Shown here: positions 1 through 49,372 of the stretch, one piece after another
Numbering within the stretch: position 1 is the first letter of the stretch
Layout: each line of letters starts with the position of its first letter
Sequence record: MH285980
Length of the DNA: 49,372 nucleotides
Source of the DNA: Escherichia phage Eco_BIFF
Direction: 5' to 3' (one strand)
Program-made: the position numbers and the translations under genes
Notes under the pieces: generated by a model
What the model was told of the DNA's origin: nothing
The model's input: the letters and a program-made list of their open reading frames with translations, nothing else
Database searches by the model: none

Positions 1-1271
1 CCGACAGCTTAGTTAAGCGCAACAGTAAGCGCGTCCGTGAGATTATCAGCAGCAACGAATTTCAAGAGCTATGGCCCTGCAAATTTGGCACATCGAAAGA
101 CGAAGAGATGCAGGTTCTTAACGAAGACGGAAAGGTTTGGTTTGAGCTAATCTCCGCAGCGGCTGGTGGTCGTATTACTGGTTCGCGTGGTGGCTACATG
201 ACTCCGGGATTCTCCGGCATGGTAATGCTCGACGATATCGACAAGCCTGATGATATGTTCTCAAAGGTTAAGCGTGAGCGTACGCACATGCTATTGAAAA
301 ACACCATTCGATCCCGTCGTATGCATAACGAGACGCCTATTATTGCAATTCAGCAACGACTACATGCTCAGGATTCAACATGGTTCATGATGAATGGCGG
401 CATGGGTATCGAGTTCGACCAAATATCAATCCCGGCGCTTGTTACTGAAGAATACGGAAAGACGCTTCCTGACTGGTTGCAGCCTTACTTTGAGCGAGAC
501 GTTTTGTCGTCTGAGTATGTTGAATTGGACGGTGTTAAGCATTATTCCTTTTGGCCCAGCAAGGAAAGTGTGCACGACCTGCTAGCTTTACGAGAAGCAG
601 ATCAGTATACCTTTGATTCTCAGTATCAGCAGAAGCCGATCGCGCTGGGTGGCTCCGTGTTTAACTCAGAGTGGTGGACTTATTACGGCAACAGCCTTGA
701 CGCTGATGAGCCAGATCCTGGTAAATATGATTACCGATTCATCACTGCCGATACCGCTCAGAAGACAGGCGAGCTAAACGACTACACGGTATTTTGTTTG
801 TGGGGCAAGAAGAATGATAAGGTTTACTTTATCGACGGCATTCGCGGTAAGTGGGAAGCGCCGGATATGGAGAGGCAATTTACAGCTTTCGTCAATCAGG
901 CATGGAGGCACAATAAATCAATGGGGGTACTTCGTAAAATCTATGTGGAAGATAAGGCGAGCGGTACGGGCTTAATCCAGAACCTAAGGAAAAAGACTCC
1001 GATATCCATCACTCCATTGCAGCGTAACAAAGATAAAGTTACCCGAGCTATGGATGCTCAGCCAGTTATTAAAGCCGGGCGTGTGGTTCTGCCAGAAGAG
1101 CACCCTATGCTTGCTGAAATTATCGCTGAGCACAGCGCCTTTACTTACGATGACACCCATCCGCATGATGATATCGTCGATAACTTCATGGATGCGGCGA
1201 ACATAGAATTGCTGACCATTGATGATCCTATCGAGAGAATGAAGCGACTCGCCGGGATGGTTAAGCGGTAA
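1..1271 (+). CDS. terminase large subunit, C-terminal part (5' end lies at 49081..49372 across the window junction)
   Basis: Frame open from base 3 with no stop until 1271; in-frame continuation of the 49081..49372 ORF; sits directly before the portal gene. Confidence 0.8.
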   Translation, partial: DSLVKRNSKRVREIISSNEFQELWPCKFGTSKDEEMQVLNEDGKVWFELISAAAGGRITGSRGGYMTPGFSGMVMLDDIDKPDDMFSKVKRERTHMLLKNTIRSRRMHNETPIIAIQQRLHAQDSTWFMMNGGMGIEFDQISIPALVTEEYGKTLPDWLQPYFERDVLSSEYVELDGVKHYSFWPSKESVHDLLALREADQYTFDSQYQQKPIALGGSVFNSEWWTYYGNSLDADEPDPGKYDYRFITADTAQKTGELNDYTVFCLWGKKNDKVYFIDGIRGKWEAPDMERQFTAFVNQAWRHNKSMGVLRKIYVEDKASGTGLIQNLRKKTPISITPLQRNKDKVTRAMDAQPVIKAGRVVLPEEHPMLAEIIAEHSAFTYDDTHPHDDIVDNFMDAANIELLTIDDPIERMKRLAGMVKR

Positions 1272-22080: not shown

Positions 22081-22154
22081 ACTGCACAAATAGCTAAACA
22101 AATAATTAATGAGGTGTTATAATGCACCTAATACACTAATCAGGAGAAATTAAG

Positions 22155-22802
22155 ATGCAATTATCACCAGAAACAAACGAAATCCTTCCCGCTCTGTTTA
22201 ATGCTCGCAATAAATTCGCGAAGGCAAAGAAGGATGCTAAAAACAATCACCTTAAAAATTCATACGCAACTCTTGATGCAATGATGGCGGCAGTTAGTCC
22301 TGCGTTAACCGATAACGATATCATGATCCTGCAATCAATGCTGGATACCAGCACTGAAACGACCTTCCATCTTGAAACGATGCTGATTCACAAATCCGGT
22401 CAGTGGGCAAAATTCTTCATGATGATGCCGATTGCAAAACGAGATCCTCAAGGTGTAGGTTCCGCAATGACGTATGCTAGACGTTACTCTCTAGCCGCAG
22501 CGCTTGGAATTAGCCAAAGTGACGACGACGCGCAGCTTGCGGTGAAATCTGTCAAAGACTGGAAGAAAGAACTTGATGCGTGCGAAGATATCGAATCACT
22601 GAAGGATGTATGGGCCAACGCCTACCGCCAAACTGACACGGCGAGCAAATCAATCATTCAGGATCATTACAACGCACTTAAGGCTAAATTTGAGATCGGC
22701 AAAGCTCGCGGCATTCGCCCAGCGCAACCGGAACAGAAAAAACAGGTTGAAGCAACGAGCGCGAAGCCTGTACAATCTCAATCAATCACCAACTTCGAAT
22801 AA
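22155..22802 (+). CDS. ERF-family single-strand annealing protein (putative)
   Basis: 215 aa with GSAMTYARRYSLAAALGI segment; sits between exonuclease and SSB. Confidence 0.5.
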   Translation: MQLSPETNEILPALFNARNKFAKAKKDAKNNHLKNSYATLDAMMAAVSPALTDNDIMILQSMLDTSTETTFHLETMLIHKSGQWAKFFMMMPIAKRDPQGVGSAMTYARRYSLAAALGISQSDDDAQLAVKSVKDWKKELDACEDIESLKDVWANAYRQTDTASKSIIQDHYNALKAKFEIGKARGIRPAQPEQKKQVEATSAKPVQSQSITNFE

Positions 22803-25909: not shown

Positions 25910-26345
25910 TGGTCGTTCCGATATCTTCCTTCTTCACGACGCGCATAAATTTCTTATTCTTGCATCGCTTCTCAAGGCATTTGCCGTTACCGTCAAACTT
26001 CAGGTCGAATCTAAGCCAGGCGGCGCGGAATCCTTTACACCCCTGACGGCGGTAAGCACGATGCGCAGCTTCAGCACCTTGCCACGAAATCATGTTGCGA
26101 TCTTTCCAGCCTTGCACTGTTTGATTGCTAACTTTCAAAGCCTTTGCGCAGGCCGCTGGACCGCCGTAATATTCAATAAGAGCGTCAAGTCGCGCTCGCA
26201 GTCCCGCTCGTGTTTCTTCTTTATGAATATAGAAGCCGCAGCGCTGTCGAGGCTTTTTGTCTTTACCGCGTCGCGTTCCGTTGTTACCATTAATGTGACG
26301 TTTATCGATTTCACCAGTTGACTCTGCGATACGTTGCATATTCAT
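25893..26345 (-). CDS. HTH DNA-binding protein (putative regulator)
   Basis: Start moved to ATG 26345 (RBS AGGAG 7 nt upstream); Cro/XRE-like helix-turn-helix segment LKVSNQTVQGW. Confidence 0.4.
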   Translation of the reverse strand: MNMQRIAESTGEIDKRHINGNNGTRRGKDKKPRQRCGFYIHKEETRAGLRARLDALIEYYGGPAACAKALKVSNQTVQGWKDRNMISWQGAEAAHRAYRRQGCKGFRAAWLRFDLKFDGNGKCLEKRCKNKKFMRVVKKEDIGTTNSIFS

Positions 26346-26357
26346 CTTAATTCTCCT

Positions 26358-26401
26358 GTAGCACTTTTTGCTAAAAACGTTTACTGTATGTCGTGTATTA
26401 T
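26358..26401 (+). promoter_or_regulatory. promoter cassette (-10 TATTAT); upstream of helicase
   Basis: GTAGCACTTTTTGCTAAAAA + 18 bp + TATTAT; 32 nt before helicase start. Confidence 0.5.
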
Positions 26402-26439
26402 AGCGTAAACGATACAACGATTCAAAGGATTAAATAGCT

Positions 26440-28458
26440 GTGACAATTAACATCAAGAAGCAAATCGCATTACTTGGCGAGGACTATATAAAACGCACTC
26501 AAGAACGATTTACTGTCGGTGAGGTCGTTCCTTATCCGTATCAGGTTGTTGCTTATGCCGAGATCGCAAAACGCCTGTCAAATTACGAGCATCCATTCTT
26601 TGTTAAAGCGTCAGTATCTGCGGGTAAAACAATCATATTCGCTATGGTGGCAAAGCAGTGTCAAAAAATGGGACTGAAAATGCTTGTGCTTGCGCGACAG
26701 GGTGAGATTGTCGATCAGGATAGTGAGGAGATTGACAACTTCGGGGTAACGAACTCCATATTCTCAGCATCGCTTGGAATCAAGTCCTGCTACTTCCCGA
26801 TCGTGGTTGGCTCAGAGGGTACTGTTGCAAATGGCCTCGACAATGAGTTAGCTGATTTCGTACCGCATGTAATTGGGATCGACGAATGTCACCAGGTGGA
26901 TTGGGAAGACCTTGCGCAAGCCATCGAAGGCAAGGAAACGATGGAGCAGATGAGGGGCGAGAAAGGGAAGGTTATCATGGACGGAGATATCCCCATGATT
27001 GGTAATGATGGAAAACCTTTACTTGGAACCAAGCGCAGTCAGTACACGATCGTAATCATGGAAATGATGCGGCGCTGTAAAAAGGTTCACGGTCACGATC
27101 TCAGAATATTTGGTATGACCGGATCTGAATTTCGGGGTGTAGTTCCTATTCTGGTAGAGAATCCTAAAGAGCTGGGATTCTGGCGTGAGCGAGTAACTGA
27201 TATCGACACAAACTATCTGATTGAGTTCGGATCTGTTGTGCCGACGATATTCGGTTCAACTGACGGCGTACACTACGATCTGGATAAGTTCAAGGCATCA
27301 AGCGAGGACGGCGTACAGGACTTTACAGAGAAAGATATGAAGGCAATGGAAGATGAGATCCTTCATGATAAATCTCTTACTCAGCGAATCATGCAAATGG
27401 TCGCCAAAAAGGCTGAAGAGCGTAACGCGGTTCTGATTACATGCGCCTGGGAACGCCACTGCAAAGAGGCGGCGGCAGCACTTCCTCCGGGAAGTACATA
27501 TGCAATTATTACTGGCGACACAGACAACAAAGCGCGCAAGAAGATTCTTGACGATGTGAGGGCTGGGAAAATTAAATACACCTTTCAGGTAATGGCGCTC
27601 ACTACTGGTGTTAACGTTCCAAATTGGGATTTCAGTGTCATACTCCGCAAGATAGGATCTCTCACTCTGTTGATTCAGCTTTTGGGTAGGGGTATGCGGC
27701 TGCTTAAATCATGGCAGGTTGCTGAAGGAATGGTTAAGCAAGACCATCTGGTATGGGATTTCGCTGGCACTATGGATGAGTTGGGCCAGCTTTATTTCGA
27801 TCCGATACTTGAGCAGGCGCAATTCCAGAAGCGTTTTGAAAACGGCAAAGACCCGAAAACATGCCCGAAATGCGGTTGCGTAAATAGCTTCTATGCTCGA
27901 CGATGCGTTAATGTCATTGATGGTGAACGTTGCGATTATTTCTGGACTTCTCAGATTTGCGAGGACCAGGTTGATGAACGTACCGGGAAAATCATTGTTA
28001 AAGGATGTGGTGCAGAGAATGACGTTGTTGCGCGAGTCTGTCGTTGTTGTGATGTTTCGCTTGTCGATCCTAACCTGAAGTTATCAGGTAAGGCGTACAC
28101 TAAGAATGACTGGTATGAAGTAAAGAATTTTGAGGTTACGCTAACCAAAAACCAGAAAGGCATAATATACAAATACACGCTGATTAACGACGATGGTGAT
28201 GAGTTCAAGGCGTATGAAAAATTCTTCCCCGAGTCTGACTCTAAGATTTGCGGTACGCTATGGAAAACTAAAGGTGTACTTCCTCATGTGTCAGATCCTA
28301 AAATGCGACGCTACTTTATCGGAATGAAGAACGCCATCAAGATTTTGCAATACTCACATCATATTGCTCACCCGGTGCGCGTAACTCATCGTCGCAACCA
28401 GAAGAAAGAAGATATTATCTCACGTAAAGACTTCGGTATGGAGGATATCCCGGAATGA
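26440..28458 (+). CDS. ATP-dependent DNA helicase (SF2) with C-terminal zinc ribbons
   Basis: Walker A SAGKT, DEAH-like GIDECHQ, CPKCG...C and CGAEN...CRCC ribbons; GTG start. Confidence 0.75.
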   Translation: MTINIKKQIALLGEDYIKRTQERFTVGEVVPYPYQVVAYAEIAKRLSNYEHPFFVKASVSAGKTIIFAMVAKQCQKMGLKMLVLARQGEIVDQDSEEIDNFGVTNSIFSASLGIKSCYFPIVVGSEGTVANGLDNELADFVPHVIGIDECHQVDWEDLAQAIEGKETMEQMRGEKGKVIMDGDIPMIGNDGKPLLGTKRSQYTIVIMEMMRRCKKVHGHDLRIFGMTGSEFRGVVPILVENPKELGFWRERVTDIDTNYLIEFGSVVPTIFGSTDGVHYDLDKFKASSEDGVQDFTEKDMKAMEDEILHDKSLTQRIMQMVAKKAEERNAVLITCAWERHCKEAAAALPPGSTYAIITGDTDNKARKKILDDVRAGKIKYTFQVMALTTGVNVPNWDFSVILRKIGSLTLLIQLLGRGMRLLKSWQVAEGMVKQDHLVWDFAGTMDELGQLYFDPILEQAQFQKRFENGKDPKTCPKCGCVNSFYARRCVNVIDGERCDYFWTSQICEDQVDERTGKIIVKGCGAENDVVARVCRCCDVSLVDPNLKLSGKAYTKNDWYEVKNFEVTLTKNQKGIIYKYTLINDDGDEFKAYEKFFPESDSKICGTLWKTKGVLPHVSDPKMRRYFIGMKNAIKILQYSHHIAHPVRVTHRRNQKKEDIISRKDFGMEDIPE

Positions 28459-28911: not shown

Positions 28912-28991
28912 ATTCTCATTGAAACGTTACGGATGTGTAAGAATGAACACTATATATTTTGTTTGCAATGTAATTTGCGAAGAGTCTAAAG

Positions 28992-29141
28992 ATGAACATT
29001 TTTTCAACTGGGGATAGTTACGAGGTTTTAGAGAAGAATGATAATTACGTAATGATTGATAATAATGGAGTTGAACGTGATGTTTGTATGGTTAATGGCG
29101 GCATTATAGTATCAAGCAATTCAAAATTCACTGAGTTATAA
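28992..29141 (+). CDS. small hypothetical protein (49 aa)
   Basis: Short AT-rich ORF between promoter cassette 28868..28911 and dam; weak RBS. Confidence 0.25.
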   Translation: MNIFSTGDSYEVLEKNDNYVMIDNNGVERDVCMVNGGIIVSSNSKFTEL

Positions 29142-29152
29142 GGATTTAAACA

Positions 29153-29866
29153 ATGAAAGACTTCAACGATATAGAAACCATCGACTTTGCAGAGACTGGC
29201 TGCTCATTCACTCGCGAAGCAATAGCGTCAGGCTGTTATTATCAGGCATTGAAAACGCCAACCTGCAAAGAGATTTCAGGGCGTCGATACAAGGGAACAA
29301 ATACCCCTGACGCTGTTCGTGATTTATGGTCAACTCCACGCGAGGTTATCGCATACCTTGAGGGGCGCTACGGAAAATATGACCTCGACGCTGCGGCAAG
29401 TGAAGAAAATAAAGTTTGCGATAAGTTTTATTCTCAGGAAACAAACTGCTTAAAACGTTGGTGGGGTAAAAATAAGCATGTATGGTCAAATCCTCCTTAT
29501 AGTCGACCTGATATATTCGTCAAGAAGGCGATCGAGCAAATGGAGCACAACAACCAGATTGATATTCTGTTGCCTGCCGATAATTCTACAGCGTGGTTTA
29601 CTGAGGCGCGACAGCACGCGGCTGAGATTATCTGGATTGAAGCTGATTTGACGGAGGATATCGACGGGAACGAGTACGCCCGATCCGGTCGCCTGGCGTT
29701 CATATCAGGTGAAACCGGGAAGGCCGTTGATGGTAATAACAAAGGTTCGGTAATTTTCATTATGCGCGAACTGAAAGAGGGTGAGGTTCAACAGACTCAC
29801 TATATCCCAATCACAAGCATTTGCCCTTCGGTTAAAAACAAGCGCGCAAAAGTAAGGAAAGTATGA
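29153..29866 (+). CDS. dam: DNA N6-adenine methyltransferase (Dam-type)
   Basis: 237 aa; SAM-binding DLDAAAS and catalytic NPPY motifs; length matches the recalled T1 Dam. Confidence 0.8.
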   Translation: MKDFNDIETIDFAETGCSFTREAIASGCYYQALKTPTCKEISGRRYKGTNTPDAVRDLWSTPREVIAYLEGRYGKYDLDAAASEENKVCDKFYSQETNCLKRWWGKNKHVWSNPPYSRPDIFVKKAIEQMEHNNQIDILLPADNSTAWFTEARQHAAEIIWIEADLTEDIDGNEYARSGRLAFISGETGKAVDGNNKGSVIFIMRELKEGEVQQTHYIPITSICPSVKNKRAKVRKV

Positions 29867-38192: not shown

Positions 38193-38556
38193 ACAATGCC
38201 TCCTTAACACGATCCGCAATGCAGGAGTTTACGGTGATTGAGTAGTTAGCCACGCCCCATAATGCAATATTGCCAAGCTCGGTACGCATTGATGGATTGT
38301 TAAGCTGGATTATCGTTTCTCCAGTATCTTTATCTACGAAGCGAGACACGCCCAAATGGTCCACCACGCGCGTTACGCGGTTAACGCACTCCATTGCATC
38401 ACTTACGCCGTAATAAGCGCTCAGAGCGGCTCTCACGGCCTTCTCTTGCTTGTTGTAAATCTTTCGCGCAATGTTCTCGATCGCAATCTGCTCTTTTTCG
38501 TCAGTATGTATTGCTGTGCTGGCTGAGAAGTCCAGGTCAGTGAACTGCTTAAGCAT
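38185..38556 (-). CDS. hypothetical early protein
   Basis: 123-aa ORF, RBS GAGGAAAG, 25 nt behind cassette 38588..38631. Confidence 0.45.
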   Translation of the reverse strand: MLKQFTDLDFSASTAIHTDEKEQIAIENIARKIYNKQEKAVRAALSAYYGVSDAMECVNRVTRVVDHLGVSRFVDKDTGETIIQLNNPSMRTELGNIALWGVANYSITVNSCIADRVKEALYE

Positions 38557-38587
38557 GATTCTTTCCTCGTTTGCTGTTGATGTGTTT

Positions 38588-38631
38588 ACTATACCCCGAC
38601 TACCTTCGGGGCGTTTAGCAATTCGTGCTAT
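38588..38631 (-). promoter_or_regulatory. promoter cassette (-10 TATAGT)
   Basis: Minus-strand ATAGCACGAATTGCTAAACG + 18 bp + TATAGT after hairpin CCCCGA/TCGGGG; 25 nt before ATG 38556. Confidence 0.5.
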
Positions 38632-38966
38632 TAATCAATATCGAACTCAGCGGCATACGCTTTCTTGAAGCCAGCTTCACGCATGGTACGCTTGCTTATT
38701 TTGCGCGGGAATTTGTACTGGCTGTTAGGCTTAACCCACCAGAAGCATGCAGTCTCGCGGACGATTTCATATTTACCGTAACGGGTGAAGATGTCACGTT
38801 CCGCGTCAGGCTGGTTAACACAGGTCAGGAATTTAGCCGCTTTGTCTTCAGTTTTGATTTCTTCCCATACGAAGGAATCCATGCCGTTAACCTTGCAAGC
38901 TACCATGATGTACTCAACGCCGTTTTCGATTTTGATGATTTCGTTACCGCGATTTTCGTATTTCAT
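38631..38966 (-). CDS. hypothetical early protein
   Basis: 111-aa ORF behind cassette 39005..39048; stop TAA abuts TAGCAC of the next element. Confidence 0.45.
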   Translation of the reverse strand: MKYENRGNEIIKIENGVEYIMVACKVNGMDSFVWEEIKTEDKAAKFLTCVNQPDAERDIFTRYGKYEIVRETACFWWVKPNSQYKFPRKISKRTMREAGFKKAYAAEFDID

Positions 38967-39004
38967 TTTCCTGCTACTGATGTGTATCTCGTTTCGATGA
39001 GGTA

Positions 39005-39048
39005 ATTATGCCAAATCGCACCGATCGAGTTTTAACAAAAAGTGCTAT
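39005..39048 (-). promoter_or_regulatory. promoter cassette (-10 TGGCATAAT)
   Basis: Minus-strand ATAGCACTTTTTGTTAAAAC + 18 bp + CATAAT; stop TAA of 39032..39736 lies inside; 32 nt before ATG 38966. Confidence 0.5.
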
Positions 39049-39736
39049 TTGCGATCGCTTTGAAAAATCCACGCGGCGACAGGGATCGTATCAGCTTAGT
39101 TTTGGCAGACTTGCCGCCCAGCTTGTTTTGCTGTGCAGAGTACCCGTCAGGCAGGTTTACAGGTTTTCTCTCCGGCATAACGAAGTCGTCAGAGGTCCAC
39201 AGACAAGTCTTCTTCGGGTAAGCATCGCGCGGCGCGATATACATCGGGAACCAGGGATGCGCGTCATTCTCAGGAAGATAGCCGCCATACTCCCAGGGAT
39301 TGAAGGAGTGATTTGGTTTTCTCCATGCAGATGACAGGACGCTCACCGGATTCTCAATTATGTAAGTCACGCCCATGCTATCGCCAATGTTCGCGGCAAT
39401 ACGGGCAGTAGCGACAGCTTTCTCCTGGAATAGCGGATCACGTTCACGCTTGCTGGCAAAATGGCGAGCACCACTAACAGCAAGGTCAGTGCATGGATGG
39501 AAGGCCATAATAAAATCCGGTTTGTCATACACACCCGCGATCGTATCACGTTCGAACTTCTCATCAATGAAGACGTTCACATACTCAATGTTCGGATGCT
39601 CTACCCTGGCGTTGTACTTTGCGTAATCTCCGTGATCGGCTCCGTCAAAGTTGAAGCACATCACCTTATGACCTTGCTTTGCCAGTTCATGGCCAGCAAG
39701 ACCGGAACCGTCGAATAGTGACCAAATTAATTTCAT
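39032..39736 (-). CDS. compact DNA (cytosine-5) methyltransferase-like protein
   Basis: C5-MTase-like motifs in order: FDGSGLAG, PC (HPCTDLAVSGA), ENP, C-terminal AIANS; only 234 aa, little room for a target-recognition domain. Confidence 0.45.
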   Translation of the reverse strand: MKLIWSLFDGSGLAGHELAKQGHKVMCFNFDGADHGDYAKYNARVEHPNIEYVNVFIDEKFERDTIAGVYDKPDFIMAFHPCTDLAVSGARHFASKRERDPLFQEKAVATARIAANIGDSMGVTYIIENPVSVLSSAWRKPNHSFNPWEYGGYLPENDAHPWFPMYIAPRDAYPKKTCLWTSDDFVMPERKPVNLPDGYSAQQNKLGGKSAKTKLIRSLSPRGFFKAIANSTFC

Positions 39737-39770
39737 TGTGACTTCCTCTTCTGATTGGTTGATGGCCCGA

Positions 39771-39814
39771 ACTATACCCTGTCAACCTGGTCGAGTCGTT
39801 AGCAAAAATGCTAT
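39771..39814 (-). promoter_or_regulatory. promoter cassette (-10 TATAGT); upstream of C5-MTase-like gene
   Basis: Minus-strand ATAGCATTTTTGCTAAC (N4 variant); motif-to-hexamer distance conserved; 28 nt before ATG 39736. Confidence 0.45.
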
Positions 39815-39999
39815 TCCAATAATTGCTCATTATTCCATCAATACTGGAATAGGTGGAATAATTTTGATTGTTATTGATTGCGAATGATGAAACGTGATTA
39901 TTGCATGGTGTGCAACAGTTGGTTGATTTGTTGCTGAGATTGCAATGATTGTGAGAGGGAGGATTTAGTGTTGCCCTGTTCGCCTGGTAGTCATCTCCA

Positions 40000-40019
40000 T
40001 TTTTAGCAAAAAGTGCTAT
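40000..40019 (-). repeat. copy of the 20-bp element without a properly spaced -10
   Basis: Minus-strand ATAGCACTTTTTGCTAAAAA at the edge of the AT-rich divergent region; hexamer at the cassette position is GAACAG. Confidence 0.35.
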
Positions 40020-40023
40020 CGAT

Positions 40024-40420
40024 TACACTTTAACTTGTCACGACTGTAATATTTGTCTAGAATCGCACTTGTGACAAAAATACACACTGTGACGCCTCAC
40101 AATATACATATAGATATATGTATATATATAATATATATAGTGTTTTTTTTATTTATATATAGATAATTATATTGTAATAGTTGTGTATAGCTGTCTTACA
40201 TTGTCTAGCGTACTGTTGGCATATTTCTATCTGCATGTTTATATATACAGTACTTTTTTGAGAGCCATATATTTCTATAGTGGCTATAGACAGCTAGACA
40301 AATGTTACACGGCTTAAAATTGGCTCGCAGGCATTGACAGCTCTACATCGCGATGTCACAATGGCAATTGTTGACACATTATGACACCATTTACACACGA
40401 ATAGACAAAGAGGATATATT
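40024..40420. promoter_or_regulatory. AT-rich divergent control region with TGTGACA/TGTCACA/CTAGACA repeats
   Basis: Repeated TGTGACA, TGTCACA, TGTCTAGA words and (TA)n tracts between leftward and rightward early clusters; TTGACA boxes at 40334 and 40371. Confidence 0.5.
40334..40362 (+). promoter_or_regulatory. sigma70-type promoter for the first rightward early gene
   Basis: TTGACA, 17-bp spacer, CACAAT; second TTGACA at 40371..40376. Confidence 0.45.
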
Positions 40421-40936
40421 ATGAGCAATACCAGTCAGGAGTTAAAAATCACCGATATGATTCGCCTAACCTGCGATGCAATGTACCGCGACAAAGGCAT
40501 GAATGAGTTCTCTTTCGTGGCTGATGATATGGCCCTCGAGGCCGCGCGATTCTACTTCCGTGACCAGGAGGTAAGTGATGACGATCTTGAATCTGCCGCT
40601 GCCGGATGGGTGGACCAGAACCAGGGGGAGGTAGAGAAGCGATTCAAGTCCGCTTTCATCACTCCGATCATTACCAGGCACTTTTGCAAGTATGGCAAGG
40701 TGGCAAAGGTGAAGGTAGGCCGGAATGACGCTGCAATCACAATGATAACGGTTATCGTTACCGACGAAGAGGTTCCCGTGAAGAAGCGCCGCAGTCGGAA
40801 AAAAGTTAGCCTGGCCGATTGCCTGGATTCGTTTGTGGTTGATGTGGGCAAACTGGCTGATAGCGAATTGATGACTCGTGACGTAAACGAGATCGTTCGC
40901 CAGATGAAAGCGCATATCGAAAAGTGTGGACTGTAA
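40421..40936 (+). CDS. hypothetical early protein (first rightward early gene)
   Basis: 171-aa ORF with RBS AAGAGG behind sigma70-like promoter 40334..40362; GC-richer than neighbours. Confidence 0.45.
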   Translation: MSNTSQELKITDMIRLTCDAMYRDKGMNEFSFVADDMALEAARFYFRDQEVSDDDLESAAAGWVDQNQGEVEKRFKSAFITPIITRHFCKYGKVAKVKVGRNDAAITMITVIVTDEEVPVKKRRSRKKVSLADCLDSFVVDVGKLADSELMTRDVNEIVRQMKAHIEKCGL

Positions 40937-42326: not shown

Positions 42327-42475
42327 TGACGGCGTGGATTTTAATTATCTTGATGAGTACCGGGCCGGATCACGTATACATGGAGAGCCAACAATCATGC
42401 AATAAGGCACGGGAAGTTATCGCAGAGAATAAGCCGTTCGGGTACGAAGTTAAAACAATGTGCGTTAAACGATAG
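42326..42475 (+). CDS. small hydrophobic protein (49 aa)
   Basis: ATG overlaps upstream stop (TAATG); N-terminal hydrophobic segment; stop TAG inside element 42472..42491. Confidence 0.3.
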   Translation: MTAWILIILMSTGPDHVYMESQQSCNKAREVIAENKPFGYEVKTMCVKR

Positions 42476-42515
42476 CACGAATTGCTAAACCTTCCGCAAG
42501 GCCATTTGATATAGT
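42472..42515 (+). promoter_or_regulatory. promoter cassette (-10 TGATATAGT)
   Basis: ATAGCACGAATTGCTAAACC + 18 bp + TATAGT in loop of hairpin AAGGCCA/TGGCCTT. Confidence 0.55.
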
Positions 42516-42578
42516 GGCCTTATTGAAGAAAAGCAACCAATCAGGCTGGATGCCGCATAATTTAATTAGGTTTTATCT

Positions 42579-42812
42579 ATGATTATCGTCAACAAAGAAA
42601 CTGGAGAGGTAATGGAGAATTGCATCATCATAGAAGAATCACCAAAACCAAAGCACAAGCATGATACTTACAGAAAGGTCACTTGCAAGGCTCCGGGGTG
42701 TGGTAATGCATACGATGCAAAAGTGTCCGATCTAAATCGCGGGTGGGGATTAACTTGCAGCAAGTCGTGTGCCGCCGTCGTTCGTGAATTAAAGAAGAAA
42801 GGGAATATATAA
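42579..42812 (+). CDS. small zinc-ribbon-like protein
   Basis: 77 aa with paired Cys motifs (CKAPGC ... CSKSC). Confidence 0.4.
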   Translation: MIIVNKETGEVMENCIIIEESPKPKHKHDTYRKVTCKAPGCGNAYDAKVSDLNRGWGLTCSKSCAAVVRELKKKGNI

Positions 42813-42961
42813 TGGCTACACGACTCACTCAGTGGCAGATTTACGACAAGGCATCACTCCTACGCGAATCACTTCGCGGATTGACACCGAACGACAGAAT
42901 GGAGATTATCGGGCACGCATTGCACGAACTCACGTCTCAGGACGTAATCTATCATTCATGA
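42812..42961 (+). CDS. small hypothetical protein (49 aa)
   Basis: ATG overlaps upstream stop (TAATG); RBS AAGGGAA. Confidence 0.3.
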   Translation: MATRLTQWQIYDKASLLRESLRGLTPNDRMEIIGHALHELTSQDVIYHS

Positions 42962-43001
42962 GGCAATAAATTCTGGAACGTGACATTCGAGGTAAAGAAA
43001 G

Positions 43002-43289
43002 ATGAGCAAAACTCATAAGTTAAAAATCGCCCCGGTACATTTCATTGGTGTAATGAACGGAACCAAAACGGCAGAGTTCCGCGTCAATGACCGAAACTTC
43101 CAGGTTGGTGATATCCTTGAGCTACGAGAGTTCGATCGCGATGAGTTTACCGGTTGGGAGGTTCACGCCAGGGTATCCGATGTTACAGACGTGACGCCAC
43201 ACATCAATCGCGGGTATGACGATCAAGGATGCGACTTCACGCAATACGTGATGTTATCAATCAAGCCTTACAGGAAGATTAGACCATGA
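43002..43289 (+). CDS. ASCH-like (DUF3850-type) PUA-fold protein
   Basis: KLKIAPVHFIGVMNGTKTAEFRVNDRNFQVGDILELRE matches the DUF3850/ASCH pattern recalled from memory. Confidence 0.5.
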   Translation: MSKTHKLKIAPVHFIGVMNGTKTAEFRVNDRNFQVGDILELREFDRDEFTGWEVHARVSDVTDVTPHINRGYDDQGCDFTQYVMLSIKPYRKIRP

Positions 43290-43924
43290 AATTTGAATGC
43301 GTATCGAGTAGCGGATCGGGGTTTAAGTGGGGGAAAACTTACAAAGGCGCTCGCGTCAATGACGACAGTTTTATCATTATTGATGAGAGCGGTTGCAATG
43401 TGAACGTTGTCCGGCGTCACGAACACCAAGAAATATTCCTGCCGTATGGCGGTAGCTCAAAATATATCTTCCATCGAATCGTAGATGGTGTTAAATTTAA
43501 AGACGTAATCGAAGCAATCAACCAACTGCATAATAAAGAGGTAAAATTTATGAAATTCGAATGTATCAGTGATAACACCAAAAAATTTACCGTTGGCAAA
43601 ATCTACGACGTGCCTACTGAGCACGCAAAGCACACTGTAGCGCTGACCGACGACACGGGCCGCCACCGAATTGCAACCGTAACTCACAATGGCGAAGGCC
43701 TTCGCTGGAACAGCGGCGGCACTAAGTTCGCAACGTTCGGCAGGAAGCGCAAGCGCACTTTCAGCGTCAATGGCAATGTTGCAGCTAACAAGATCCACAA
43801 CGTCAAGCCGTCGGAAGTTGACCGTAAGCCAGCGCTGAAGTTTGAAGAGAAGGCGGATTTGTCTGGCCTGGCTGTGGCGATTGTTCTCCTGGTAGCTGCG
43901 ATTTCGCTGATGTTCATCATGTAA
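43286..43924 (+). CDS. membrane-anchored protein with internal tandem duplication
   Basis: Two ~85-aa repeats each starting MKFEC(V/I)S, internal RBS AAGAGG before the second; C-terminal TMD. Confidence 0.45.
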   Translation: MKFECVSSSGSGFKWGKTYKGARVNDDSFIIIDESGCNVNVVRRHEHQEIFLPYGGSSKYIFHRIVDGVKFKDVIEAINQLHNKEVKFMKFECISDNTKKFTVGKIYDVPTEHAKHTVALTDDTGRHRIATVTHNGEGLRWNSGGTKFATFGRKRKRTFSVNGNVAANKIHNVKPSEVDRKPALKFEEKADLSGLAVAIVLLVAAISLMFIM

Positions 43925-43977
43925 TTTTAACGGGGAATCTGCTCTGAGCGGTTCCCCTTTCTTTTGGAGAAAGAACT

Positions 43978-44088
43978 ATGCCAGACTTTTCTAACTGGAA
44001 TAACGAGCCGCCATCATTTCATGAGTTGCTATTTTGCCTACTGATCCTGACATTATCTCTTAAGGGTGTTTTATGGCTACTATCATGA
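43978..44088 (+). CDS. small hydrophobic peptide (36 aa)
   Basis: RBS GGAGAAAG after terminator-like hairpin 43931..43962; hydrophobic LLFCLLILTLSL; overlaps next gene start. Confidence 0.25.
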   Translation: MPDFSNWNNEPPSFHELLFCLLILTLSLKGVLWLLS

Positions 44089-44288
44089 CAGCAGAAGATG
44101 CAGCACGCGACGCAGTGGAAGGAATGCGCCCAAATACCTCCAGAATCTCCCACTACTACAAATTTGATGTGTCGGCAGTGCAATTGGTCCACGAAATTTT
44201 AAGGCTCCCACAAGTCGATTCAGCGCGCGTGGTGACGTGCTTAAAAAATTATTTTTGCATCACTGTTAAAACGAATAGCACGAATTGA
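44073..44288 (+). CDS. hypothetical early protein
   Basis: 71-aa ORF with RBS AAGGGTG; stop TGA inside element 44275..44294. Confidence 0.4.
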   Translation: MATIMTAEDAARDAVEGMRPNTSRISHYYKFDVSAVQLVHEILRLPQVDSARVVTCLKNYFCITVKTNSTN

Positions 44289-44318
44289 TAAAACCTATCA
44301 AGGGGAATGCGCTATGAT
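44275..44318 (+). promoter_or_regulatory. promoter cassette (-10 TATGAT)
   Basis: ATAGCACGAATTGATAAAAC + 18 bp + TATGAT in hairpin GGGGAAT/ATTCCCC; 24 nt before ATG 44349. Confidence 0.5.
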
Positions 44319-44348
44319 TCCCCTACACCAACAAACGAGGAAGCACTC

Positions 44349-44795
44349 ATGAAACACTTAATTTGCATTGAAACGCCTAACGATGAATACACTCTGCACG
44401 GCATTGGAATGTTCAAAGGTCACTACATGACAGCGAGCATTTACGATGCTCGTCGCGGCGATGGCGATCTGATGATTACGTCAAGAGAAGTAAATCCGTA
44501 CATTATGCAGAATCTTGGCGATAACGAATATATGGCCTACGGCTGCAACGCGGTGTACAAGCACATTAAGATCCGCAAGCATGTTGTGCGTGCATTCAAG
44601 AAAATTGCAATGAAATACTGGAAGATGAGCAAGAAGGATGCCGGACGCTGGGCGCGTAACGTTGCAGATTCATACTTCTACCGTAACGGTGAGTCCTGCT
44701 ACTTCCTGGTCGATGAAATTATGGAAAACTACGGCGGCGACTTCAGTCAGTGTAGCTTTGACGCTTGGGCTGACTATGAGATCAGTTGCTGGTAA
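44349..44795 (+). CDS. hypothetical early protein
   Basis: Start set at ATG 44349 (RBS GAGGAAG); track start 44307 lies inside the promoter cassette. Confidence 0.45.
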   Translation: MKHLICIETPNDEYTLHGIGMFKGHYMTASIYDARRGDGDLMITSREVNPYIMQNLGDNEYMAYGCNAVYKHIKIRKHVVRAFKKIAMKYWKMSKKDAGRWARNVADSYFYRNGESCYFLVDEIMENYGGDFSQCSFDAWADYEISCW

Positions 44796-44838
44796 TAGCA
44801 CTAATTGCTAAAACTTGCTCAAGGGTATTTGATAGAAT
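44795..44838 (+). promoter_or_regulatory. promoter cassette (-10 TGATAGAAT)
   Basis: ATAGCACTAATTGCTAAAAC + 18 bp + TAGAAT in hairpin AAGGGTA/TGCCCTT; 33 nt before ATG 44878. Confidence 0.55.
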
Positions 44839-44877
44839 GCCCTTCGTTGAGTTAAGCAACCAATCAGAGGAATCACT

Positions 44878-45081
44878 ATGAAAACTATTACCGGAATGAG
44901 CAACGAAACGAGAACGCAGATCGTTAGCATGCTAATCGGCATGGCTGACGATATTCAGAATAGCCATGTCGTTATTGATTCATGCAATCAGACTCGTGAG
45001 AGTAAATTTGAATCATCCGGCTACAAAATTGTTGAAGAAGAATTAACCATCAAAATCATTCGCGTACAGGAGAAAGCATAA
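44878..45081 (+). CDS. hypothetical early protein
   Basis: 67-aa ORF with RBS AGAGGAA behind cassette 44795..44838. Confidence 0.45.
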   Translation: MKTITGMSNETRTQIVSMLIGMADDIQNSHVVIDSCNQTRESKFESSGYKIVEEELTIKIIRVQEKA

Positions 45082-45611
45082 TGGATAAAATCACAATTTG
45101 GGGTCAGAAAATCAACCTGTTTCTCGGCACGCGCCGCGTAGCAATCTTTGACTTTGACGGGACGCTGAGTGAAGGATCTGGTCGACTTCACCTGTTACCG
45201 ACAAAAGATTTGCACTTGACTGAAAGCTGGTCTGAGTTTAACCGTGCGGCAATATTTGACAACCCTATCCAAAGCACGATCGACGTGATGAACTCTATGT
45301 TTGCCGCTGGATATCATGTAATAATTTTAACCGGGCGAAGTGATGAGGTGCGTTACGCATCTGAGTTATGGCTTAAGCATCACGGCGCTCGATATGATTA
45401 CTTAGTCATGCGACCGCACACCGACAACCGTAAAGACACGGTAATGAAAGAAGAGGCAGTGCGCGCGATCGGCATTGATAACATTCTGGCGGCTTGGGAT
45501 GACTCAGTGAATATAATAAAAAAATTCAGAGAGCTAGGAATAACCACGTATCAGGTTTGTGAATATGCCTGTAATAGTCGAGAGGATTTAAAAAGTCATG
45601 GTGTCGATTGA
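45081..45611 (+). CDS. HAD-superfamily phosphatase
   Basis: HAD motif I FDFDGTL and downstream motifs (ILTGRSD, W-DD); RBS GGAGAAAG. Confidence 0.6.
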   Translation: MDKITIWGQKINLFLGTRRVAIFDFDGTLSEGSGRLHLLPTKDLHLTESWSEFNRAAIFDNPIQSTIDVMNSMFAAGYHVIILTGRSDEVRYASELWLKHHGARYDYLVMRPHTDNRKDTVMKEEAVRAIGIDNILAAWDDSVNIIKKFRELGITTYQVCEYACNSREDLKSHGVD

Positions 45612-46092
45612 TAACAAATCAAGGGTAAGAGAGTTATTTACTTATTCTGACGGCGTTCTGTATTGGAAAGCTAAATCATCTAAATACAGTAGAGCTAAAA
45701 TAGGAGGAGCGGCAGGAAGCAAGGATAAAGACGGATACATAATAATCAGAGTAAGAAGCGAAACTAGAGGCGCTCACAGGCTTGTATGGATATACCATAA
45801 TGGTAAGATACCGAATGGAATGGAGGTAGACCATATGGATGGAGACATAAAAAACAATAGAATAGAAAACCTAAGATTGGTAACGAGAACCATAAATAAC
45901 AGGAATCAAAAAAAGAGATTTGATAACACAACCGGAGTATCCGGTGTAACTTTCATGAAAGATAGAGGAAAGTATAGGGCGCAAGTTAGAAATAAGAAAC
46001 TCGGGCAATTCGACACAATAGAAGAGGCCGCTCAAGCCGTAAATTATGAGCGTGATAGATTAGGTTTATTCACAAAAAGACACGGAGTATAA
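45598..46092 (+). CDS. HNH homing endonuclease (HNH + AP2-like domain)
   Basis: EVDHMDGDIKNNRIENLRLVTR motif plus AP2-like GKYRAQVRNKKLGQF; AGA/ATA-rich codons; paralogue of 36018..36503. Confidence 0.7.
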   Translation: MVSIDNKSRVRELFTYSDGVLYWKAKSSKYSRAKIGGAAGSKDKDGYIIIRVRSETRGAHRLVWIYHNGKIPNGMEVDHMDGDIKNNRIENLRLVTRTINNRNQKKRFDNTTGVSGVTFMKDRGKYRAQVRNKKLGQFDTIEEAAQAVNYERDRLGLFTKRHGV

Positions 46093-46094
46093 AC

Positions 46095-46667
46095 ATGAAA
46101 ACAGCTATCATTTTAAACGGAGCACCTGGCGCAGGAAAAGACACTATCGGATGCATCCTGGCTGACACTTACGATCATGTAGCGCTACGCAGCTTCAAAG
46201 CGCCAATGTTTGAGATTGCCAGAGCAATCCTGGGTGAGGCTAATTTCGAGTATTTCATGTTCTTGTATGAGGACCGTCGCTATAAAGAAGAGCCAGCATC
46301 AATCCTGAACGGTAAAAGCCCGCGCCAGTTTATGATCTGGATTAGCGAGGAAGTCATCAAGCCGCAGTTCGGAAATCGCTTCTTCGGTATGCGAGCGGAA
46401 AGCAAGGTGAAAGAGTCGCACTCCCTTTCGGTATTTACTGATGGTGGATTCAAAGACGAAATCTTGCAGATGATTGAAGGTGATATCCAAGTCAAGCTAT
46501 GTCGAATACATCGCAACGGTTGCAACTTCGATAATGACAGTCGAGACTATATCTACCTGGACGATATGATCGGGGTTAACGGCTATCAGGAGTGTGACTT
46601 CTTCTCTGTCGAAGGTCATCCAGAAATTACCGCTCATCACATAGCCGCCACGTTCATCAATAAATAG
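46095..46667 (+). CDS. P-loop nucleotide kinase (dNMP-kinase-like)
   Basis: Walker A GAPGAGKDT at N-terminus, 190 aa; RBS GGAG; stop TAG inside element 46664..46683. Confidence 0.55.
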   Translation: MKTAIILNGAPGAGKDTIGCILADTYDHVALRSFKAPMFEIARAILGEANFEYFMFLYEDRRYKEEPASILNGKSPRQFMIWISEEVIKPQFGNRFFGMRAESKVKESHSLSVFTDGGFKDEILQMIEGDIQVKLCRIHRNGCNFDNDSRDYIYLDDMIGVNGYQECDFFSVEGHPEITAHHIAATFINK

Positions 46668-46707
46668 CACGAATTGCTAAAACGTCGGTGGGGTGATTTG
46701 ATATAGT
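46664..46707 (+). promoter_or_regulatory. promoter cassette (-10 TGATATAGT)
   Basis: ATAGCACGAATTGCTAAAAC + 18 bp + TATAGT; 26 nt before ATG 46740. Confidence 0.55.
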
Positions 46708-46739
46708 TACCTCATCGACAACGAAGAGAGAAAATCGAA

Positions 46740-46949
46740 ATGATGGTATCAACTGATAAGTTTTTCACTTGCACTAAAACTTCTGAGGTATTCGAACTGG
46801 TTCATACTGACAACGGTGATTTCATGCATGACGGTTGCGACGTTTTCATTGAAGTGAAAGAAAGCGACTATGACGACGGAGTTTATTACAACCCGGCAGT
46901 TAACACGCAGTTTTTTACCCCGATCGAAGAGGAGGAAGAAGAGGCATGA
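46740..46949 (+). CDS. small acidic protein
   Basis: 69 aa, Asp/Glu-rich, C-terminal EEEEEEA. Confidence 0.45.
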   Translation: MMVSTDKFFTCTKTSEVFELVHTDNGDFMHDGCDVFIEVKESDYDDGVYYNPAVNTQFFTPIEEEEEEA

Positions 46950-47289
46950 TCACGATTAACCTGTAAGATAAACAAGCGCGTGAAATACTAGACACTATCG
47001 GCGAACAGCTTCACGTAAAAGGCGCTGCCGCCGAACTTCTTAACCAGATCGAAAGGCAGCTTACCCCGGCATCAACGAATCAATCTGAGTTTGCAACCTG
47101 GAAGAGCGAGCGAATCCTGCCAAATATCATCAAGGCATGGAAGCGCAAGCATAAAAAAGAAATAAATGTTGAGGATTTATTTACCGATGAATTAAGTCCT
47201 TCAAAGGTTGCTCAATACCAGTTGCGATACATGGAATCAGTTTGCAATCAGGTTTTAGGTGTTAATTTTTCATTTGGGAGAGGTAAATA
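46946..47289 (+). pseudogene. hypothetical gene interrupted by in-frame TAA at 46964..46966
   Basis: ATG 46946 overlaps upstream stop; TAA at codon 7 followed by ~107 stop-free codons in the same frame with no internal start codon; 3' end overlaps next ATG. Confidence 0.35.
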
Positions 47290-47520
47290 ATGTTCGGTTT
47301 AAGTGAAGCGGAATGGAACGTGGTAAAGCGCGCGGCGAAGGAATTAAACAAATTCGTCAGCGGCATGAAGAAAGAAGATCGTAAAAACGACAAGATCATG
47401 ATTGATGTAATCTCAGCTCACCACAAAAAGGTCGAGTTACTAATCGACCGATACAAATTTGTCTGGACTGCCGGGTACATTGCCGGGCGCGTAGGTAACA
47501 AAGAAGGGGATTACGAATAA
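47290..47520 (+). CDS. hypothetical early protein
   Basis: 76-aa ORF with RBS GGGAGAGG. Confidence 0.45.
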   Translation: MFGLSEAEWNVVKRAAKELNKFVSGMKKEDRKNDKIMIDVISAHHKKVELLIDRYKFVWTAGYIAGRVGNKEGDYE

Positions 47521-47723
47521 TGGCTAATTTACCGAAGAAAGGCGATCAGGTTCGATGTGTCACATCACGAAATGGCGATGCTTTCTCAGCCGGGTGCGCG
47601 TACGACGTTGAAAAAGTCAGTAAGTCAAAGAGGCTTGTATTCGTGTACGGCGATGATGGAAACCTGCATGAGATTGATTACCCGCAGGATATGACTAAGG
47701 GACAATTCGAAATTAATGATTGA
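47520..47723 (+). CDS. hypothetical early protein
   Basis: 67-aa ORF overlapping upstream stop; its stop TGA lies in the -35 TTGACC of the next promoter. Confidence 0.45.
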   Translation: MANLPKKGDQVRCVTSRNGDAFSAGCAYDVEKVSKSKRLVFVYGDDGNLHEIDYPQDMTKGQFEIND

Positions 47724-47749
47724 CCTAAGTCCCTGAGCGGTGATAGTAT
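47720..47749 (+). promoter_or_regulatory. sigma70-type promoter with extended -10
   Basis: TTGACC, 18-bp spacer, TGaTAGTAT; followed by ~130-nt structured leader before ATG 47888. Confidence 0.55.
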
Positions 47750-47887
47750 TAATCCCGTAGACAGACGAGGCGCAATTAGGCGCAACGCGTGAGACGATTC
47801 TCACTCTTCCAGCTAACAAGCTCGGTTGCATAGTGGTTAAGCAACGCCGCAGACCCGTAAGCGGCAACAATTCAAGAGGATTGCATA

Positions 47888-48049
47888 ATGCAAAACACTA
47901 AAGACGAATCAATCAAAATTGAAATTAAAGTAACTCGCAACGGTGAAACCACTCGTTATAAAAAACGATTAAATCCTGGCGAGGCTGTTATTGGTCGCAT
48001 TGCTGGCGTTATGATTAAGGCGCAGGAAGATGAAGCGATTCAAAGTTAA
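47888..48049 (+). CDS. small hypothetical protein (53 aa)
   Basis: RBS AAGAGG 8 nt before ATG 47888; behind sigma70 promoter 47720..47749 and a ~130-nt leader. Confidence 0.4.
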   Translation: MQNTKDESIKIEIKVTRNGETTRYKKRLNPGEAVIGRIAGVMIKAQEDEAIQS

Positions 48050-48215
48050 ATTAATCATTCGAAAGATGGGAATGTTTTGCCAGTCGTGCAAACAATCTTT
48101 CGAAACAGAATTATCTGCAACCAGTCAGGCAGAAGCCATCACGAAAGCGAAGAAACTTTCCGATGCTAATCTTGACACTCACAAAATAAACATTGAATTA
48201 ATCAAGGAGATTTAA
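48030..48215 (+). CDS. hypothetical protein
   Basis: 61-aa ORF overlapping previous gene; start uncertain. Confidence 0.3.
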   Translation: MKRFKVKLIIRKMGMFCQSCKQSFETELSATSQAEAITKAKKLSDANLDTHKINIELIKEI

Positions 48216-48216
48216 C

Positions 48217-48443
48217 ATGACCATTTTTTATTGATTATCGCTGGTATCATTATTTTTGGTGCTGGTTTGCTTGCTGGATTCGCACTTGTTGCGGCAGCGA
48301 TTGCGATGGACGCGAAGGATAAAACTGGTGTATGGCTGACCTACTCACCTAAGAAGGACCAATGGGAAATGACTGGCGACCTTGCTCACTGCTACTCTAA
48401 AGCTCAGACCCACCCTAAAGGCATTAAACGACGATTATCGTGA
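48217..48443 (+). CDS. small membrane protein; needs a +1 frame change at T6 run 48224..48229 (alternative TTG start 48231)
   Basis: ATG 48217 has ideal RBS AAGGAG 7 nt upstream but hits a stop after 5 codons; one extra T would give MTIFLLIIAGIIIFGAG... with an N-terminal TMD. Confidence 0.35.
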
Positions 48444-48452
48444 TAAATACTA

Positions 48453-48476
48453 ACCCGCTTCGGCGGGTTTTTTTAT
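48453..48476 (+). terminator. intrinsic terminator before terminase promoter region
   Basis: CCCGCTTCGGCGGG then T7. Confidence 0.6.
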
Positions 48477-48493
48477 GTCTGCAATATGGTAAA

Positions 48494-48513
48494 ATAGCAC
48501 TAAATGTTAAACA
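48494..48513 (+). repeat. copy of the 20-bp element overlapping the -10/leader of the terminase small-subunit gene
   Basis: ATAGCACTAAATGTTAAACA overlaps extended -10-like TGGTAAAAT (48487..48495) and is followed at once by RBS AAGAGGA. Confidence 0.4.
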
Positions 48514-48527
48514 AAGAGGATGGATTT

Positions 48528-49052
48528 ATGAGTGAACCTAAGAACGCTCCCGTAGTCCAGGGTGGTAATTTCAAAGAGCTATACAAGAAAAAATTCGGCA
48601 CTGTACTAGCGAAAAACCGCGCGATGACGCCAGAACAACTATTCGATCTGTCGGTGAAGTATTTCGAATGGGCCGAGGACAACGCGATAAAGGCGTCAGA
48701 ATCAGCCAGCTTTCAGGGTGGCGTTTATGAATCGCTTGTTCATAAGCCGCGCGTCTTCACCTGGACCGGATACCGACTATTTATCGGTGCAAGCGAGGCC
48801 GCAATCATTAAGTGGAAGCGTGAGGAAGAATACAGTGAGGTTATGGAGTTCGTGGAATCCGTAATCAACGAGCAAAAATTTCAGCTTGCCGCAAACGGCG
48901 TTATTAACGCCTCATTTATCGGCAAGGATCTCGGAATCGACAAGCCAGCTTCAATAAACATCGAAAACTCGGCAGCTTCAGCGTCGACCGCTGTCGCCAC
49001 TACTGAGGAAGCAATGAAAGAGGCTGTAAACAGTATTCTTGACATGCTTTAA
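48528..49052 (+). CDS. terminase small subunit (putative)
   Basis: RBS AAGAGGA before ATG 48528; ~175-aa ORF immediately before terminase large; position only. Confidence 0.55.
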   Translation: MSEPKNAPVVQGGNFKELYKKKFGTVLAKNRAMTPEQLFDLSVKYFEWAEDNAIKASESASFQGGVYESLVHKPRVFTWTGYRLFIGASEAAIIKWKREEEYSEVMEFVESVINEQKFQLAANGVINASFIGKDLGIDKPASINIENSAASASTAVATTEEAMKEAVNSILDML

Positions 49053-49080
49053 CGTTACGGGCGCGCAAGCGCCCATACAG

Positions 49081-49372
49081 GAGAATTGATATGATTCAAT
49101 GGGAAGAACTCGACGCAACTCAGAAGTTGGCGATCAAGAAAATGAGCGAGGCCAATTTCGAAAAAATGATTCGGATCTGGTTTCAGCTTATGCAGGCTCA
49201 GCAGTTCCAGCCTAACTGGCATCACCTTTACCTATGTCACGAAGTGGAGGAAATTATTGCAGGCCGACGCGGTAACACTATCTTTAACGTCACGCCAGGC
49301 TCCGGTAAAACTGAAGTGTTCTCAATTCACCTTCCGGTGTACGCAATGCTCAAGTGTAAAAAGGTGCGAATC
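49081..49372 (+). CDS. terminase large subunit, N-terminal part (runs off window end, continues at base 3)
   Basis: RBS GGAG before ATG 49081; Walker A TPGSGKTE; no stop before window end; frame matches ORF at window start. Confidence 0.8.

Follow-up and report, generated by a model that had tools for sequence, protein, structure and literature searches.

An early in-frame ochre codon, a nonsense allele or a base-call error, in the ORF60 (DUF7180) orthologue of a T1-like phage genome

The window analyzed here, the whole stretch of 49,372 nucleotides from Escherichia phage Eco_BIFF (MH285980), is a nearly complete genome of a Tunavirus, a phage T1-like siphophage of the Drexlerviridae, and is ~94% identical to its nearest GenBank relatives. 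Between the genes for dNMP kinase and the small terminase lies an operon of translationally coupled small accessory genes, one of which carries a stop at its seventh codon. The features of this region are as follows:

46740..46949, + strand, upstream gene, orthologue of T1 ORF61 (69 aa, PHROG 10456), 97% identical to T1_017
46930..46944, + strand, purine-rich Shine-Dalgarno (SD) region AGGAGGAAGAAGAGG before ATG 46946, read from the sequence; a T1 RBS is annotated at the homologous place
46946..46966, + strand, residual frame of the ORF60 orthologue, MITINL followed by TAA, read from the sequence
46965..46965, + strand, the lesion, A in the window and C in relatives (Ser7 codon TCA to TAA), from alignments
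46967..47290, + strand, remainder of the ORF60/DUF7180 gene, codons 8–114 and the stop TAA, presumably now untranslated, identical to the intact sibling allele
47276..47283, + strand, strong SD GGGAGAGG, 6 nt 5′ of ATG 47290, from the sequence and the T1 RBS annotation
47290..47520, + strand, downstream gene, orthologue of T1 ORF59 (76 aa, PHROG 303), intact, 99% identical to T1_019
48217..48443, + strand, orthologue of ORF55 (T1_023, a 75-aa single-pass membrane protein) in the same operon, frameshifted in comparison with relatives
48452..48469, + strand, terminator-like hairpin followed by a T-run, closing the small-gene operon and matching the terminator annotated in T1

The interrupted gene is tied to both neighbors by overlapping codons. 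The stop of the ORF61 orthologue, TGA at 46947..46949, overlaps ATG 46946 in the sequence ATGA, and from this ATG the first seven codons read ATG ATC ACG ATT AAC CTG TAA, the last of them at 46964..46966. Behind this TAA, 107 sense codons follow in the same frame as far as the TAA at 47288..47290, whose last A is shared with ATG 47290 of the next gene (TAATG). Direct reading of the sequence thus confirms what had been noticed from the letters alone, namely a TAA at codon 7 followed by a long stop-free frame; the 3′ overlap with the next ATG also stands, while the end of the gene, placed earlier at 47289, is actually 47290. The first in-frame canonical start codons past the codon-7 stop are a TTG at codon 93 (47222) and an ATG at codon 96 (47231), in agreement with the observation that neither ATG, GTG nor TTG occurs until near the end of the frame. 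A stop-free run of 107 codons has a probability of ~0.005 per position at the stop frequency of the window (0.049 per codon). Moreover, the stretch past the stop has 92% protein identity to T1 ORF60 (T1_018) in a tblastn search and is identical to the gene of a sibling phage described below. The open stretch is not due to chance, and protein identity is the more decisive evidence for this than the run length.

The T1 record (AY216660) gives the homologous stretch as CPTT1_018, “Orf no. 60,” a hypothetical protein of 114 aa, which has the same ATG and the same TAATG end and lies between ORF61 and ORF59; the annotations of this locus in Shfl1 and SH2 agree with that of T1. The interrupted gene is the orthologue of T1 ORF60 (CPTT1_018, 114 aa; PHROG 9709; Pfam DUF7180). 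The T1 protein matches the profiles PF23805 (E = 8e-32) and phrog_9709 (E = 3e-67), the DUF7180 match covering its N-terminal 76 residues, and the sibling allele, the same as that of the window except for codon 7, is also recorded with PF23805. The ORF61-ORF60-ORF59 synteny and the ATGA and TAATG couplings are kept in the window, and only the uninterrupted reading frame is absent because of the TAA at codon 7. The original prediction of a real, translationally coupled gene that is broken at codon 7 is borne out.

As for function, the Pfam match of the ORF60 protein is only a DUF, and its PHROG is of unknown function. PADLOC gave nothing significant for the protein (JukA, E = 0.04), a profile search against PDB gave no match below E = 0.08, and a literature search on DUF7180, Tunavirus nonsense mutations, and phage T1 CRISPRi-ART returned nothing useful. 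An AlphaFold2 model contains five helices at low confidence (pLDDT 59), which suggests a mostly helical protein.

An alignment with orthologues had been proposed as a check of the codon-7 stop, and the outcome is uniform. Codon 7 is TCA in T1, Shfl1, and SH2 in the DNA alignment and TAA in the window. The same TCA is found in 28/28 orthologous loci fetched, that is, 26 from GenBank and IMG/VR (L001–L026) and two others (L028 and L029), with relatives down to 37–49% identity included. Position 46965 itself is C in all 26 of the fetched relative loci that align there and A in the window. The proteins from L001–L026 start with MITINLS, except for one VITINLS and one MITINDS, and the Ser7 column is invariant in the alignment of the 26 database proteins. 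Conservation in the family is highest at the N-terminus, MITINLS[DE][KE]QAR, and this holds in relatives at 37–49% identity as well. A conserved start downstream of 46966, which would have spoken against the interruption, is absent from the orthologues; all of them begin at the ATG that corresponds to 46946. Exact-pattern scans for the TAA allele in IMG/VR, JGI metagenomes, and GTDB genomes gave 0 hits each. The TAA in the window is a C>A change, private to this genome, of a TCA codon that is conserved throughout.

A closer comparison is possible with a sibling phage. A look-up of the dNMP kinase of the window found an identical protein in Logan assemblies, and the contig SRR7812061_194 (49,254 bp), with its twin in SRR7812060, is 99.94–99.97% identical to the window over ~32.5 kb, corresponding to window positions 43095..49372 and 1 to about 26240. 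Both SRR7812061_194 and ERR6786105_22 carry an intact DUF7180 gene of 114 aa, one base off the copy in the window (C instead of A at 46965). Past the stop, the window allele has no change relative to the sibling. As there is no further decay past the stop, the lesion is very recent, and the comparison shows it to be a single, private C>A transversion. Beyond ~26247, the window and the sibling are mosaic at ~90% identity, which marks the two as natural relatives rather than as parent and laboratory derivative.

The mosaic boundary lies at about 26240..26450 onward: identity is 99.97% up to ~26240, and differences are frequent from 26247. It falls within a T1_056-like regulator gene and the divergent promoter region that precedes the helicase gene, and the boundary near 26247 looks like a recombination breakpoint. 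On the far side of it, the Dam gene (29147..29767) has 90% identity to that of the sibling. At 28919..29146, an insertion of ~230 bp, absent from the sibling, separates the genes for Holliday-junction resolvase and Dam methylase; it holds a 49-aa ORF (28992..29141), and the T1 CDS coordinates leave no space for it. The stretches 38556..40439 and 42472..43550 match none of the 78 T1 CDS, and T1 ORFs 002–006 are without counterpart in the window. Such unmatched stretches and missing ORFs are the usual accessory-gene mosaicism of T1-like phages.

The ORF60 family has a median pairwise dN/dS of ~0.11 (Nei-Gojobori, 17 orthologues) and is therefore a coding gene under purifying selection in nature. 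By tblastn, 248 phage records have the DUF7180 domain, 80 have the full-length protein, and 1428 have the adjacent dNMP kinase; the ratio of 248 to 1428 records fits an accessory gene within the phage family. C-terminal frameshift variants of ORF60 circulate as well, for example, in SH2 and P0022. From the patchy distribution of the gene, we infer that ORF60 may be dispensable for the phage in culture.

The codon-7 TAA is probably a real null allele, i.e., an incipient pseudogene, of a dispensable accessory gene, a reading to which we give a probability of roughly 0.6. The lesion is private, the orthologues are intact, and there is no alternative start to rescue the frame, as expected of a nonsense allele. 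By the C>A change at 46965, TCA, the codon of the invariant Ser7, would become an ochre TAA, so that ribosomes coupled from ORF61 would start at ATG 46946 and release a six-residue peptide, MITINL. The remaining 107 codons would be left untranslated for lack of a canonical in-frame start ahead of codon 93, and DUF7180 protein would not be produced. The ORF59 orthologue retains a strong SD of its own (GGGAGAGG, 6 nt 5′ of the ATG), which should allow initiation without coupling, and it would still be translated. Still, ~320 nt of untranslated mRNA could lower ORF59 expression through lost coupling or Rho-dependent polarity; these effects on the downstream gene are presumed from the layout of the operon. 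A point against a real null allele is that purifying selection on the ORF60 family shows the gene to be of importance in nature and makes such an allele somewhat unexpected in a natural isolate. The mutation also changes TCAGAT to TAAGAT, a better −10-like hexamer; a new promoter was considered and rejected, since there is no acceptable −35 and the site is absent from a promoter scan.

A lesser possibility, though one to be taken seriously, is that codon 7 of the phage is really TCA, the gene being intact, and that the A at 46965 is a wrong consensus base from sequencing or assembly. Apart from this one base, the sequence is identical to intact alleles, and an intact gene is the prior expectation for a family under purifying selection. 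A C>A (G>T) change is also a signature of oxidative damage during library preparation. The same record, furthermore, contains a classic error signature, a homopolymer shortened from T7 to T6 that disrupts the ORF55 orthologue, and it ends within terL with ~17 nt missing and two odd terminal bases, which are marks of a draft assembly. On the other hand, when the 78 T1 CDS were searched against the window by tblastn, 76 other T1-shared genes aligned over their full length without stops or frameshifts; the ORF55 orthologue, whose first three residues are missing from the match, is the only other disrupted shared gene. In the shared 32.5 kb, 9/9 other homopolymers of at least 7 bases and 29 runs of 6 match the sibling exactly, and the assembly is therefore not generally error-prone. 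Substitution errors are rare in a consensus at normal phage sequencing depth, and only six window-private differences from relatives are present in the 32.5 kb. These are portal M61I, tail-tip L185F, an intergenic A>G, T1_012-like I65V, ORF60 S7*, and the T7>T6 deletion at 48224, two of the six (ORF60 S7* and the 48224 deletion) being gene-breaking. The private coding substitutions include no synonymous one; the ratio of synonymous to non-synonymous changes is not discriminating as a test for error, as the private differences of the sibling are also mostly non-synonymous.

Some details of the record may be added here. The private substitutions besides 46965 are at positions 1508, 14148, 44265, and 20938 (portal M61I, tail-tip protein L L185F, T1_012-like I65V, intergenic A>G). 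The ends of the window, 49363..49372 and 1..10, lie within the gene for the large terminase; the final two bases, TC, are mismatched, and ~17 nt of the sibling (ACCTTAACGTATCGTTTG) are missing across the junction. Such ends resemble those of a draft contig from a circularly permuted assembly. Two other stops flagged by the tblastn search with the T1 CDS are harmless. In the ERF recombinase region (22122..22802), the window has TAA at 22137 where T1 has CAA, annotated as codon 6; the stop is upstream of the real start, evidently ATG 22155 (T1 codon 12) with a GGAG SD before it. On the Logan contigs, the gene is called in its 215-aa form, and the start annotated for the T1 ERF recombinase is probably 11 codons too long. 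The other, a stop in an HNH tblastn alignment, is outside the intact ORF.

The T7>T6 deletion recorded at 48224 is private to the window and shifts the frame of the ORF55 orthologue at codons 3–5 (MTIFY*), while T7 is found in 15/15 relatives whose ORF55 start matched the search pattern. A homopolymer deletion of this kind is typical of sequencing errors. A 70-aa ORF starting with TTG remains at 48231..48443, and the new TGA overlaps this in-frame TTG (TTGA, 48231), so that a 70-aa product could be made by termination-reinitiation. That the ORF60 stop and the ORF55 frameshift are both real and adaptive is improbable. On that reading they would be two independent early knockouts, private to the isolate, in the same small accessory operon, and they would have been selected because one or both proteins trigger host defence or abortive infection, or are costly, on the isolation host; DUF7180, if so, would be a defence-sensed phage protein.

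More improbable still is a restart past codon 7 that gives a truncated functional protein. In-frame near-cognate codons are present, ATA at codon 14, ATC at codon 18, and CTG at codon 58, and a weak SD-like GGAAGAG lies ~10 nt before the CTG (47117); in E. coli, translation is known to restart after early nonsense codons, as in lacI and T4 rIIB. However, there is no ATG, GTG, or TTG before codon 93, the ATA and the ATC are without an SD, and near-cognate codons initiate at ~1% or less of the level of ATG. The product would also miss the most conserved N-terminal segment of the family, which makes a function unlikely.

Programmed recoding, in which readthrough, bypassing, or suppressor decoding of the UAA would still give the full-length protein, is hardly tenable and is not supported by the sequence: the downstream frame is perfectly intact and belongs to a coupled operon, but the stop is private, with a sense codon in all relatives, even in the sibling of 99.94% identity, the flanking sequence is unchanged from intact alleles, so that a recoding signal cannot have evolved, and ARAGORN found 0 tRNA or tmRNA genes in the window, hence no phage suppressor tRNA. 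The stop context is UAA-G; UAA followed by G is among the most efficient terminators in E. coli, with a basal readthrough of ~1e-4 to 1e-3. Of the three options first offered for the stop, recoding thus falls away, for want of conservation and of a suppressor tRNA, and a nonsense mutation (pseudogene) and a base-call error remain.

What lies at this locus is, then, a conserved hypothetical accessory gene, belonging to a T1-like phage, with either an ordinary one-base nonsense lesion or a base-call error in it, and the finding matters little beyond annotation. The gene should be annotated as a disrupted ORF60/DUF7180 orthologue (pseudogene), and neither left blank, nor given a far-downstream start, nor described as recoded. 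If the A at 46965 is real, this isolate is a natural knockout and shows that growth in culture does not require the DUF7180 gene, perhaps not ORF55 either, which is modest but usable functional information on two uncharacterised genes that T1-like phages conserve. If it is an error, positions 46965 and probably 48224 of the record need correction.

Among known systems, the nearest is T1 ORF60 itself (CPTT1_018, AAP49941.1; PHROG 9709; PF23805), which the window allele resembles in position, in overlaps, and in the length of 114 codons. The window allele differs from T1 ORF60 by the TAA at the invariant Ser7, and standard decoding would yield no DUF7180 protein. With programmed readthrough, as in the A1 read-through protein of Qbeta, the window allele shares only an in-frame stop followed by a long open frame: in programmed readthrough genes, the stop is conserved among relatives and stands at the end of a functional upstream domain, whereas the stop in the window is private, at codon 7, in the context UAA-G, and without a suppressor tRNA. 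The likeness is closer to the classical ochre (UAA) nonsense alleles of non-essential phage genes. Unlike those alleles, the window allele was not, as far as is apparent, selected as a mutant in the laboratory; as in them, a single-base change creates an early UAA and leaves the rest of the gene intact, and the phage, assuming that the window sequence is that of a propagated phage, is likewise evidently viable.
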